Shown piece by piece: positions 2,091-10,292 of a stretch of DNA of 64,000 nt. The notes under the pieces are model-generated. The model was not told where the DNA came from, did not search any database, and worked only from the letters and a program-made list of their open reading frames with translations. Each line of letters begins with the position of its first letter. Position 1 is the first letter of the stretch. The position numbers were made by a program, and so were the translations under genes. Origin of the DNA: Eledone cirrhosa (Eukaryota); NCBI GenBank assembly GCA_964016885.1, contig CAXHJY010001268.1:10979-74978 (forward strand). Direction: 5' to 3'.

Positions 2091-2856
2091 GTGTGTTTAT
2101 GTGAGTGACTTAATTTCTATTTGCTTATGATTTTATATCCACATATATAAATGTGAGTGGGGGAGTGTGTGTGTTTGTGTGTTCGTGGTTATGTGTATAT
2201 TTATATATATACGCACATGTATGTGTGATTATACTGATATGTGTGAGTATGAAAAAAATATATTTATATGCTTGACTCCATAAGTATCATTGCGTATCTT
2301 ATCAGCGCATTAAGCTTACAGAGATATTAACCTTGAAATTTTTTATTTGCATCCATCTTTTTGGTATGCACATACAAATTATACACACATTATTGTAAAA
2401 TGTGTGTGGGGTTTTACATGTATCACACACCAAACTGCTTTTTAACCCTTTGTGTTTTCATTGGTCAATTTTGAACTGATATTTTGAATTGTTGTTATTA
2501 TCAATAAATATACTTCATTATTTCTGAAGACGGCGTATATATGAGTTAGGTATGTATATTTAATCTTGATAATTTGTATAATTTTGTATAATTTTGTACA
2601 TAGATCTGTTAAATATGCATACCAATTATAACACATATATACCCTAGAAACGATCGTTAAATAGTGAACTTTTTTTGTTTAATATAAGGAATTGTTTGTT
2701 CATTATTTGTTTAATATTTTATCTTGACTCTGTATACCGTTTATCTTTCACCGAAATTGGATTTTCATTACATCTCTTCTTTCCATGATATCCGGAATAC
2801 ATTGAGTTCTTCATACGGATTGGACATTACCGTAAACTTTTGGTAGATTTATCTAC
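2091..2856 (+). mobile_element. Hammerhead-bearing repeat, probable Penelope-like element pLTR, copy 1
   Basis: Directly repeated at ~5217-6050, diverged copy at ~10075-10473; copies 1 and 3 end at ggtagatttatctac|(AT)n. Confidence 0.6.
2514..2668 (+). ncRNA. Type I hammerhead ribozyme motif with extended stem II
   Basis: Stem I ttcattattt/aaatagtgaa, CTGAAGA core (2524), long hairpin, GAAA (2647), palindromic stem III ACGATCGT, triplet GUU. Confidence 0.75.
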
Positions 2857-5660
2857 ATATATATATATATATATATATATATACACACACACATAGACTC
2901 ATATATATATATATACATATACATACATATATATAAACATATATATCCACACACTCATACCACCATAAATACACATACAAACACCCACATGTATATATAT
3001 ATATATATATATATATATCCACATACACACACGTACACATATATATATATATACATATATACACATACATATATATATATACACACACATAAAAAACAGA
3101 CATGCACATATATATATATATATATATATTTCATTACTCTTATATATACACATAATATATATACATACACAACCTCACTTATACACATATACACATAAGT
3201 TATATTACAATAATAATAAAGAATAATATATATATATATATACATATATACACATATACATATATACATATATATATATATATACATACATACATACACA
3301 TACATACATACACATAAATATATACATACATAAATACACACATACGAAAAGACATATATTCACACATAGACACCTATATACACATATATATATATATACA
3401 TATATATATCTATATATATATATATACATACATACATATATATATATATATACACATACACACACACACACACACACAGACACACATACATACTCACATA
3501 TATATATATATATGTGTATATGAGTGTGCGCAAATACACATATATATACACACACACACATACAAACACACACAAACACATACATATGCATACGTGCAGA
3601 CACACACACATATATCACATAGATACGAAGATAAACATATAAATAGAGAGACATACAAATATATACAGAACCCATATACACATACATACAAACACGCATA
3701 TACATATACATACATATATACACATATATATATTCCTATATACAAGCATACAGATACATACACATATATACATATACATACACATATACATACCACACAT
3801 TCACATACACATACATATATAATACATATATATACATATATATACATACATATGTATGTACGATCATATATACACACTCAATCTTACATTCATATTTACA
3901 TGCTCATATATGTATTTTTATATTTAGAAATAAATACCAAAACCTATATATACACCCACCTACACATATATTCATACATATACGCTTACAAAAACAGATG
4001 ATAATAGTATGGGGGAAAGGGGGGGTTTGGAGAAGGGGATCAAAGTAAATATATGTTTCAAGAAACATATAATATTTTCCGTATCTTAATTCAATGTATG
4101 TTCTTACATATTTTCAGTGCTAGGAAATACGAAATCTATGCATCCCAAAATAAAAAAGTATACCATTAATCATATGTTAACTAAACCAAAGATAGTCAAC
4201 ATATTGATTTCCAAGGTGTAAATTAGTTAGGTTTATAATATTTGAAGCAGAATTATGAAGTCAAACAGTAGTAGATTATTAATTACATTATAACTAAATT
4301 AAAGTTAATAACGTTATGGTATCAATATTAGGAGATGAATTTAGTAATAGGGAAAAGAAACCCAAATAAAAATAAAATAAAGTATTACATCGGTAGTAGC
4401 ATATAAATTATATGTTAACTAAATTAAAAATTATATATTTATTTCAATAGTATACGTTAATTAGTATATGTTAATTAGGTATACAATACATAAAGCAGAT
4501 ATTGTATTTCATCAATAGCATAATATAATTATATGCAAATAAAAATCAAAATTAATACGCATACATATACATATACATACACATACACATATATATACAT
4601 ATACACACATATATATATATATATACATATATATACACATACATACATATATACTCACATAAATATACATACAGATACACATACAACACACACATATACA
4701 TATACATATAGATATACATATCTTTTTCAAAAAATTGCACAGAATATATTAACTAGGTATATATCCAAAACACATCCCATTCTATGATTACATGACATTC
4801 TGCAATTCGTCTGTACAAGGATACTAATTTTAAGCAAATTAAAATTAAAGTTTTAGGTTGATTAAAACTAAAACCAAATAATAAATATATTTCCAAAATG
4901 TATATTAATTAGGTCTATAATACTAAAAATTCTTTCTCCGTCATTGGATACATGATATTATCTTGTTATATTTTATCTGTAAAAGAATTATAATAAAAAA
5001 AATTATAATAAAAGGTTAAAATAAATTAAAATTAATCTATAAATTAAATTACTGAGTATATATTAGTAATATTTAAAGGTTTTTCAAAATTTATGATTAC
5101 ATAATATTTTCTCATCTGTAATAAAATATTAATTAAATTAAATTTATAGGTTAACTAACATTTAAATTAAATTAAATTCTAGAATAATGTTATTAATTAG
5201 GTTTATAATATTTAAATGTGTTTTTATGTGAGTGACTTAATTTCTATTTGCTTATGATTTTATATCCACATATATAAATGTGAGTGGGGGAGTGTGTGTG
5301 TTTGTATGTTCGTGGTTATGTGTATATTTATGCATATACGCACATGTATGTGTGATTATACTGATATGTGTGAGTATGAAAAAAATATATTTATATGCTT
5401 GACTCCATAAGTATCATTGCGTATCTTATCAGCGCATTAAGCTTACAGAGATATTAACCTTGAAATTTTGTGTTTGCATCCATCTTTTTAGTATGCACAT
5501 ACAAATTATACACACATTATTGTAAATATGTGTAAGGTTTTTACATGTATATACACACACCAAACTGCTTTTAACCCTTTGTGTTTTCATTGGTCAATTT
5601 TGAACTGATATTTTGAATTGTTGTTATTATCAATAAATATACTTCATTATTTCTGAAGAC

Positions 5661-5847
5661 GGCGGTGTATTGGCAGTATCGGTAGAGGGTCAGACGCCGT
5701 GCTTTGCAGCAAAGAGTTACGGCCCTTTATGGTCTGAGTTCAAATCCCGCCGAGGTTAACTTTGCCTTTCATCCCTACGGGGTCGATAAAATAAAGTACC
5801 AGTAATACACTGGGATAATATCTGGCCTTGTGCCAAAAGTAGAAACA
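5661..5847 (+). mobile_element. tRNA-derived SINE with 15-bp TSD
   Basis: A box TGGCAGTATCGG, B box GAGTTCAAATCC; TSD ATTATTTCTGAAGAC at 5646-5660 and 5848-5862; empty site in paralogue at 2517-2531. Confidence 0.9.
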
Positions 5848-5999
5848 ATTATTTCTGAAGACGGCGTATATATGAGTTAGGTATGTATATTTAATCTTGA
5901 TAATTTGTATAATTTTGTATAATTTTGTACATAGATCTGTTAAATATGCATACCAATTATAACACATATATACCCTAGAAACGATCGTTAAATAGTGAA
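5848..5999 (+). ncRNA. Type I hammerhead motif, copy 2
   Basis: Same as 2514-2668; core regenerated by the SINE TSD. Confidence 0.7.
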
Positions 6000-6049
6000 C
6001 TTTTTTTGTTTAATATAAGGAATTGTTTGTTCATTATTTGTTTAATATT

Positions 6050-8823: not shown

Positions 8824-9341
8824 AGATCAACGGTTAAATTCTCCTACTCAACAACCAAAAACATAAAACAAAATATAAGTGCCTACAATGCATATAAATA
8901 ATAGATATGAATGTAGATTATGTTCCCAAGAACTTTTTGAAATAATGAAATCTAAGGATATCCTATTAAATAAGCGACAGGAATTAATAATATCGTTAAC
9001 ATATAATTAACATATAATTAATATTCTACTACTGAAGAACTACATAATTTTACTTTCCTTCTTACAACTATCTTTTCCTAAAATTGATACCATTAAGTAA
9101 ACATATATAATGTTTTAATTTCAGGTTATGATTCTATGTTCCTTGAAATCTCTATATATTTATTATTTCTCACTAATAAATTTACCCCCCCCCCCCCAAT
9201 AATTATATATATATATATATATATATATATATATATATATTCTTTTTATATTTATTTAATTTCCCCTCGTCTTTAACAGCACTCTTCAATTACATCTAAC
9301 TCTTATTTATCATATCTATATGCATTAATATAATTTTAATA

Positions 9342-9525
9342 GGCGGTGGATTGGCAGTATCGGTAGAGGGTTGGACGCCATGCTTTCCAGCATAGTTACG
9401 TCCCTTTACGATCTGAGTTCAAATCCCGCCGAGGTTGACTTTGCCTTTCATCCTTACGGGGTCGATAAAATAAAGTACCAGTAATGCACTGGGTAATTGC
9501 TGGCCTTGTGCCTAAAGTAGAAACA
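9342..9525 (+). mobile_element. tRNA-derived SINE, same family, 15-bp TSD
   Basis: A/B boxes; ATTAATATAATTTTA at 9324-9338 and 9526-9540. Confidence 0.88.
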
Positions 9526-10154
9526 ATTAATATAATTTTATCAATATAAATATACCCATCAATTATATTAATTTATATTCTTTTCATAGATGTAAATTCC
9601 ATATATATTTTTTTCACTAACACTTTTATCGTAAAATTTTAGTCTCCTTAGATATTTACATTGGCATTATTCTTTTATAACAGCAACTTTTCGTGTTACC
9701 TTTTACTGACCTGACCTATTTTCACCCCTAAAATAAACTTTTCATTCTTCATACTCCTTCCATTCAAATCTGAAATCTGCCTTCTTCTACCCCAAAATAA
9801 ATTTCAATTACTACTATTTTACCATTTGGCCAATTATTACCTTTCTATTGGTTAATTCAAAACCTGTTCCCAAACAAACCTACTATATTAAATCTTTGTT
9901 GGTTTTATTCAATGAACAAATATAATTATTTCTGAGGTTAGCATATGACCTATTCTCATCCTATTCTCATCTTTCATTCATAATATTCTTTCCATCCAAA
10001 ACTGAAATCTACCTTCCTCTACCCATAAAGTAAGGTTCTTTTACTACTATATTACTATCTTGACCTTCACTATCTTTCTATTGGTCAATTCAAAACCTGT
10101 TCCCAAACAGACATATTGTATTAAATCTTTGTTGGTTTTTTCAATAAACAAATA

Positions 10155-10292
10155 TCATTATTTCTGAAGACAGCATATATATGTGTAGGTATGTATATTC
10201 CCTCTGATAGTTTGTAAAAATTTTACATAGATCTATAGGATATGCATACCAACACTAACATATATATCCTAGAAACGATCGTAAAATGATGA
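10155..10292 (+). ncRNA. Type I hammerhead motif, diverged copy 3
   Basis: tcattattt-CTGAAGA-hairpin-GAAACGATCGTA-aaatgatga; triplet GUA; compensatory changes in stem II. Confidence 0.75.

Follow-up and report, generated by a model that had tools for sequence, protein, structure and literature searches.

We reexamined a 64,000-nt window of the Eledone cirrhosa genome (3.0 Gb; G000:C1295:10979-74978, that is, contig C1295), which a first-pass annotation had described as carrying a three-copy hammerhead ribozyme family in an intron of the huntingtin gene (HTT). Our preferred reading, which as a whole we consider likely, is that the motif is the pseudo-long terminal repeat (pseudo-LTR) hammerhead of a Penelope-like element (PLE) of the Hydra clade, that the window copies are incidental to HTT, and that the element's RNA is made and reverse transcribed by the mechanism proposed below. 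The copies in the window are truncated PLE 3' ends inserted in (TA)n runs. A pseudo-LTR hammerhead is itself of a known kind; the new features are the long stem II, a 5' boundary one base wide, and the paired tails of inverted copies. Statements on published systems refer throughout to the portions of the cited sources covered here.

All three copies were found at their reported positions with the parts described: stem I, CTGAAGA, a hairpin, GAAA, the palindrome ACGATCGT and H17. This is type I hammerhead anatomy, with the core CUGANGA, GAAA and UH arranged around three helices and helix I open. Copy 1 (2514-2668, + strand) consists of a 10-bp stem I (2514-2523/2659-2668), core 2524-2530, a 116-nt stem II (2531-2646), GAAA 2647-2650, palindrome 2650-2657 and H17 at 2658. 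Copy 2 (5848-5999, +) has a 7-bp stem I, C3 of the CTGAAGA at 5855, a 116-nt stem II and H17 at 5989, and copy 3 (10155-10292, +) has a 9-bp stem I, core 10164-10170, a 101-nt stem II and H17 at 10283; C3 lies at 2524 in copy 1 and 10164 in copy 3. The length of about 116 nt first given for stem II therefore holds for copies 1 and 2 and fails for copy 3. H17 is T, T and A in copies 1, 2 and 3, and cleavage is predicted after 2658, 5989 and 10283. Copies 1 and 2 match at 100% identity across 206 nt and so count as a single data point. The stem I of copy 2 was cut down to 7 bp by an insertion of about 190 nt, resembling a short interspersed element (SINE), with a target-site duplication. Origin of copy 2 by local duplication of copy 1 was dropped as unproven, identical copies being found across the genome.

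The family extends far beyond three members. The pattern core-N85..125-GAAACGATCGTH matched 12,859 places in the genome, compared to 13 for the reversed-pattern control, whereas spacers of 20-84 nt gave 373 matches (control 20) and spacers of 126-170 nt gave 184 (control 9). The density is about one copy per ~230 kb, often clustered, and the family is also present in two contig-only runs, X1 and X2 (one sample). Among the best candidates scored, 41 matches to copy 3 were 99-100% identical to it and 40 of 40 matches to copy 1 were 100% identical. Such near-identity indicates a young family, and the carrier PLE is likely young and still mobile. The prediction that these hammerheads would escape standard scans is supported: among the 150 of 202 window matches listed by Rfam (E<=1), there were simple-repeat matches only and the hammerhead family was absent. 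The repeat search of the window was dominated by (TA)n. Descriptors built on short stems can miss a hammerhead family of >12,000 copies. The scan that located the three copies returned three further, weaker hammerhead candidates in the window. The one at 32376 (+), between HTT exons, has CTGATGA, a 46-nt spacer or stem II, a 7-bp stem I and a palindromic stem III, and may belong to another PLE family or be a chance match.

A Penelope-like origin had been suggested, together with a check of whether longer copies join an open reading frame (ORF) for reverse transcriptase (RT) and GIY-YIG endonuclease (EN). The ORF is indeed linked. Twenty loci were chosen for a long PLE ORF, and these alone are free of the bias of search patterns that impose the core. 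In 15 of them a full hammerhead lies 3' of the ORF on the same strand, 14 at 0.9-1.3 kb and one at 2.4 kb. Loci L046 and L051 carry an extra hammerhead 480-515 nt before the ATG, giving a unit of 4,052 nt in L051, and a motif both before and after the ORF is the pseudo-LTR arrangement. Three known traits of PLEs were found together: partial-tandem pseudo-LTRs with a hammerhead (L046 and L051), inverted 5'-truncated copies (29 inverted pairs), and a tail at one end. In most loci inspected, the 3' ends adjoin TA runs and lie ~61-78 or 191-216 nt beyond the cleavage position. Most listed copies are short with no ORF nearby, and PLE matches occurred in a minority of the diverse loci tested, as might be expected of a non-autonomous retrozyme or SINE-like hammerhead repeat independent of any coding element. 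Against this, short tandem arrays were not found, the flanks are untranslated regions (UTRs) of the ORF-bearing element, and copy 3 retains two ORF remnants at 97-98% (8819-8996, +; 97.5% and 98% to L051:5140-5220 and 5576-5676). We regard that alternative as largely refuted and hardly credible; the layout of a non-LTR retrozyme, with short tandem units of one hammerhead each and no ORF, was likewise not seen.

The single ORF encodes RT and a GIY-YIG EN and returned 89 homologues, the named ones being from octopods; the copies examined were frameshifted or 5'-truncated. The protein carries RWR, DKT, YRDD, CxCX5C, YIG, CxxC and CxH motifs, has a C-terminal EN, and has no cysteine pair inside the GIY-YIG domain. 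The Hydra clade is defined by a C-terminal EN, RW(K), DKT, a CxCX5C linker, CxxC, CxH, and the absence of the CCHH cysteines inside GIY-YIG, and has a listed Octopus member, Hydra-1_Obim (PMC8557442). The element would therefore be placed in this clade by its motifs, with RWR where Hydra has RWK. A Pfam scan of the L041 ORF gave zero matches. Identity as Naiad or Nematis was dropped because domain order and motifs fit Hydra, and Naiad/Chlamys elements, with an N-terminal EN and no canonical hammerhead, do not correspond to an element whose EN is C-terminal and whose hammerhead is present. More diverged PLE ORFs occur at L038:1-1851 (-), L131:4805-6961 (-) and L138:6798-8305 (-), with a similar linker or 35-78% identity to the L041 protein, and indicate several families of the clade in the genome.

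Stem II was correctly singled out as atypically long and structurally conserved. Its predicted fold reached -38.8 and -30.4 kcal/mol (z -6.0 and -4.8), and 0 of 200 shuffles were as good. We aligned 41 sequences, comprising window copies 1 and 3 and 39 drawn, with near-duplicates excluded, from 58 distinct long-stem variants. The 37-pair structure was paired in 95.7% of 1,507 cells, compared to 21-63% in slid controls. Double changes occurred in 8 of the 37 pairs, with a covariation score of 0.164 against 0.116, figures that relatedness inflates; helices I and II are both paired with covariation, from few independent events. The compensatory G-C/A-U change cited initially was recovered at column 22/139 (AU in 31 and GC in 7 of 41), and the basal C.A opposition is retained in 55 of the 58 distinct variants. 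Length varies by small duplications at the tip, and internal deletions that spare the base also occur. Probably the element tolerates the long stem II as a rod that grows by slippage at the tip while pairing is maintained at the base. It is four to five times longer than in the listed Hydra-clade hammerheads, and in this respect appears new: the literature covered, which took in a portion of the supplement of Craig et al. but not Lunse 2017 or Arkhipova 2017, either of which may list long-stem variants, yielded no PLE with a reported stem II of 100 nt. The longest deviant row of PMC8557442 File S2 has ~53 nt (counted). The basal mismatch is not peculiar to this family, U.U being found in many listed Hydra hammerheads and C.A in the plant element PLE-X1_cBra (PMC8557442 File S2).

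Related elements elsewhere have shorter stems. A sense-strand hammerhead-like match was found at 11 of 78 metagenome loci of related PLEs, all with a stem II of 13-29 nt in a scan that allowed up to 250 nt; the remaining 67 are uninformative because many contigs end near the ORF. Other hammerhead families within the Eledone genome have the ACGATCGT stem III in common and unrelated stems II of 20-97 nt (e.g. L131:3201, L152/L177, L175 and L151), and one at L141:5550 has a branched stem II. In the DNA available around these loci, a PLE ORF is nearby in few.

Cleavage of the motif is a prediction. Helix III, the short palindromic helix, is worth 0.2 kcal/mol in the monomer, compared to -10.0 kcal/mol for the intermolecular palindrome duplex, so that cutting, if it occurs, should depend on dimerization. 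Other PLE hammerheads likewise depend on dimers and cleave slowly in vitro (PMC4209133). An alternative pairing, in which the end of stem I and C3-U4 pair with A11.1-GAAA, competes with the active fold. With 7 nt upstream, the predicted probability of the basal stem I pair was 0.00 for copy 1 and 0.02 for copy 3, rising with 30 nt upstream to 0.54 and 0.72; these are secondary-structure predictions that ignore tertiary contacts of the core.

These folds bear on whether the motif still cleaves. It might be past cleaving and kept as a promoter-proximal or protein-binding RNA structure, as its lowest-energy predicted fold pairs the core with itself, the G10.1-C11.1 pair is missing, the counted copies have sequence on both sides of the cut site, and cleavage is dispensable in vitro for a lizard PLE (PMC11167929). 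However, 15 of the 20 loci chosen by ORF have core, palindrome and UH site intact, as do diverged families whose stems II differ, and variation between subfamilies falls at N7 and H17, which are free positions. In addition, listed Hydra and PLE-X hammerheads have basal mismatches too, so G10.1-C11.1 is not strictly defining. We therefore judge a dead ribozyme rather improbable, and prefer a hammerhead that is predicted to cut slowly.

The 5' ends of copies are sharply placed. In the CGGC subfamily, 1,470 copies start exactly at the A 7 nt before C3 (+1), a count inflated by chance A at joints, compared to 210 one base later (+2) and 111 one base earlier (-1); 3,537 run through. Some rows are lost from the first three 5'-end patterns to a filter on the first letter, and SINE insertions account for 4 of the first 100 +1 rows. 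Among the first 30 pattern places, 28 were scorable: 11 begin 3-10 nt before the core, one carries a SINE at that place, and 16 run on. The A of this dominant end lies in TCATT, which resembles an initiator element. An extra G precedes +1 in 31 of 100 rows, compared to 12 of 100 and 4 of 100 at the neighbouring positions (Fisher p 0.002 and 4e-7), and 649 copies carry a G before +1; such a G is expected from copying of the cap, and about half of the cases are explicable by templated letters. The dominant 5' end is likely the 5' end of the RNA, that is, the transcript start. In the window, the equivalent base is the A of TCATT at 2517 (+), 7 nt before C3, which would likely be a transcript start when the sequence sits in the 5' pseudo-LTR. 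A downstream promoter element was dropped, as it matched in one subfamily and was absent in the other. On two metagenome contigs with related PLEs (L219:49 and L246:38), the core lies <50 nt from the beginning of the contig, which would be expected of an RNA beginning there; one has TCATT just upstream.

The same position marks the joints of inverted copies. Head-to-head joints at stem I, within 30 nt between two cores, numbered 1,121; a control window shifted ~20 nt downstream gave 48, and an upstream control, covering one subfamily only, gave 3. The first 50 joints comprised 25 different sequences, so they do not derive from one amplified master. A stall or template switch of RT at an AT-rich near-palindrome could also produce the pile-up of 5' ends, with the rest of the PLE reading standing. 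A large number of the joints are palindromes made of A and T alone, a templated explanation is available for about half of the extra-G cases, and stem I is a helix junction. Against a stall, the boundary is confined to one base (1,470 copies, versus 111 at the preceding base) and sits within the helix rather than at its edge; better (TA)n microhomology 4-10 nt upstream is used in 1 of 50 joints listed; and the boundary base falls within TCATT. D. virilis Penelope also has an internal promoter in its pseudo-LTR (PMC2377424). A stall is unlikely in our view, yet is to be taken seriously, and we favor a transcript start.

The tails of the inverted pairs follow a regular pattern. Twenty-six of the 29 pairs were classifiable, of which 23 join one long and one short tail, with one long/long, one short/short and one intermediate/short (p 9e-5). 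This pairing fits the tail that PLEs carry at one end (PMC8557442), and it fits the in vitro behavior of a lizard PLE protein, which nicks and extends both strands, starts RT from two internal sites and is a predicted dimer (PMC11167929). In that system uncut RNA serves as template, and the protein assists the hammerhead.

These observations are consistent with the following mechanism. The RNA of the element would start at the A of TCATT, so that its 5' hammerhead has a stem I of only 7 bp and is predicted to fold inactive, with the core paired with itself. The uncut RNA would be the template. The PLE protein, probably as a dimer, would nick both strands of a (TA)n target, and RT would start at two internal sites, ~65 and 200 nt beyond the position of cleavage. 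Each of the two complementary DNAs would extend to the 5' end of the RNA or stop short of it, and the pair would be linked head to head. At the 3' end, where stem I has its full 9-10 bp, slow cutting by the hammerhead as a dimer through ACGAUCGU, perhaps aided by the protein, would trim read-through RNA to unit length.

A stronger version, joining these parts as a position-dependent switch, is tentative, and we think it unlikely. With transcription starting inside stem I, the capped 5' copy would be locked off by pairing between its core and the conserved A at the stem II base, and cutting would fall to the 3' copy, whose stem I is complete. The ~100-nt rod would be a selected domain that either binds the PLE protein or promotes translation beyond the 10-14 upstream AUGs. 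The 5' UTR of the element does contain 10-14 upstream ATGs, and hammerheads in the 5' UTRs of fungal viruses promote cap-independent translation, an analogy only (PMC13725137). If the switch exists, the 1,121 joints with paired tails would record a dimeric RT copying two complementary DNAs to the cap, and the inverted repeats typical of PLEs would be explained.

Several observations weigh against our preferred reading of a Hydra-clade pseudo-LTR hammerhead and its mechanism. By the pattern used, 5 of the 20 ORF-picked loci had no same-strand downstream hammerhead, and placement in the clade is by motifs rather than by a tree. Conservation of the core is in part ascertainment, since the search patterns forced it. 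The covarying cells represent few independent events among related subfamilies, with reference copies included, and 8 of 500 shuffles reached an equal number of covarying pairs. The G10.1-C11.1 pair of the published PLE consensus is replaced by C.A, and the RNAalifold consensus favors the inactive pairing over stem I. Cleavage itself is predicted, as noted, and the share of extra G open to a templated explanation and the single-subfamily upstream control reduce the force of the 5'-end evidence.

The HTT position, on the sense strand, is probably right. The window carries C-terminal huntingtin exons on its + strand, the first of them at 16436-16512 (+; Htt_bridge profile 235-260, AG/GT flanks), and serve here as context only. 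This 27-aa exon was placed by Pfam at E 0.0004, below the curated cut-off, and a PDB sequence search with it did not find huntingtin. Bridge-domain exons lie on scaffold C2, where the last covers profile 175-233; it and the first exon of the window are both phase 0, and a 200-N gap (276357614-276357813) lies ~5 kb past it. The 10,978 bases of the contig that precede the window showed no HTT exon. As consecutive exons thus flank an assembly gap, the unplaced contig C1295 probably fills the gap in C2 and the copies are probably intronic.

It had been proposed that the three sense copies could dimerize in cis and cut HTT RNA as it is made, which would regulate HTT expression or damage it. The copies are indeed sense to the HTT exons and probably in one intron, and they have a common 8-nt palindrome with a duplex of -10 kcal/mol. 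The C1295 stretch contains six hammerhead copies, however, four sense and two antisense, the three additional ones lying upstream, so no meaning need be attached to sense orientation. The two upstream antisense copies would be transcribed first, and the duplexes predicted between the upstream antisense arm and copies 1, 2 and 3 (-246, -241 and -143 kcal/mol) outweigh the copies' own folds of -43, -40 and -35 kcal/mol. As PLE hammerheads are in addition slow in vitro (PMC4209133), cutting of HTT RNA by cis-dimers is very improbable. Given one copy per ~230 kb genome-wide, often clustered, and the preference for (TA)n, location in HTT needs no special cause. The copies were likely inserted at (TA)n runs within an HTT intron and likely play no part in that gene, and the family has little bearing on huntingtin.

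Positions 1-2856 (+) of the window form the right arm of an inverted PLE insertion, with a simple-repeat-rich 3' UTR, copy 1 and a long tail to (AT)n; this arm has a 99% inverted match of 3,065 nt to C1295:7103-10156, upstream of the window. An inverted copy of the PLE 3' UTR follows at 2844-5225 (-; 92% to window -776..1730), and then, at 5218-6053 (+), a PLE 3' end that contains copy 2 and has a short tail up to (TA)n. The SINE-like repeat (5661-5851, +) is inserted at the hammerhead core of copy 2, its target-site duplication leaving a half core at 5653 and restoring the core at 5855; we take it to be a SINE from its dispersed 190-nt copies. The same repeat recurs at the hammerhead core in L033, L050, L089 and L144, joining stem I by its A/T-rich 3' end, and the site is a recurrent target. 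The PLE 3' UTR before copy 3 (9001-10154, +) holds another copy of the SINE at 9342-9529, along with a tandem duplication of 234 nt (9712-10178, 81% identity). The first unit of this duplication has stem I and a core-like half, ends in a degenerate half core near 9931, and is missing the rest of the ribozyme. The long tail of copy 3 (10293-10475, +) is 5' UTR sequence of the element and ends at (AT)n.

ORFs of long interspersed elements (LINEs), presumably RTE-like, with apurinic/apyrimidinic endonuclease and RT motifs lie at 47763-50885 (-), an uninterrupted frame of 1,040 aa, 11401-14734 (+) and 34756-36483 (-). Two inverted LINE copies in the HTT region, 12998-14819 and 60212-62033, are 99% complementary over 1,822 nt and lie 45 kb apart.

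The function of PLE hammerheads and the origin of inverted ends are open questions (PMC8557442). Thousands of recent copies, one dominant 5' end in stem I and regular pairing of tails make both directly testable in this genome. The family resembles Hydra-clade PLEs (Craig et al. 2021, PMC8557442), including Hydra-1_Obim, in its C-terminal GIY-YIG EN and RW/DKT/CxCX5C/CxxC/CxH motifs, (TA)n targets, pseudo-LTRs, inverted 5'-truncated copies and one-end tail, and in a type I hammerhead whose stem III is palindromic and whose stem II often has a mismatch at its base. It differs in a stem II of 95-116 nt, compared to ~24 nt or less in the listed Hydra rows (counted from File S2 of that paper), a unit of ~4 kb compared to <~3 kb, a tail of ~135 nt compared to 30-40 nt, and its ~12,900 copies. 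The minimal, palindromic PLE hammerheads (Cervera and de la Pena 2014, PMC4209133) likewise have CUGANGA with an extra base, GAAA, palindromic stem III and UH. In those, stem II is short (their Fig. S3) and helix II has 4-8 bp, whereas here it has 20-30 bp with bulges and the G10.1-C11.1 pair is missing. Poseidon PAc of Anolis (Frangieh et al. 2024, PMC11167929) also has two internal RT starts downstream of the hammerhead, AT-rich targets, use of both strands and an uncut template. It belongs to another clade, its ORF starts inside stem II rather than 350-380 nt after the cut site as here, and a fixed 5' end at stem I is not reported in the parts of that paper covered. Spike-moss PLE-X elements (PMC8557442 File S2) have a non-canonical hammerhead with enlarged stem II/loop 2 near the element's 5' end, although theirs, at ~48-53 nt (counted), is half the length found here, and they are plant elements without EN. 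We also drew on PMC6962438 and PMC10085705. Finally, animal non-LTR retrozymes (PMC7229834; bioRxiv 10.64898/2026.07.22.740005) are high-copy type I hammerheads related to PLE pseudo-LTRs, but they form short tandem repeats without an ORF, whereas the copies described here are fragments of an ORF-bearing element.

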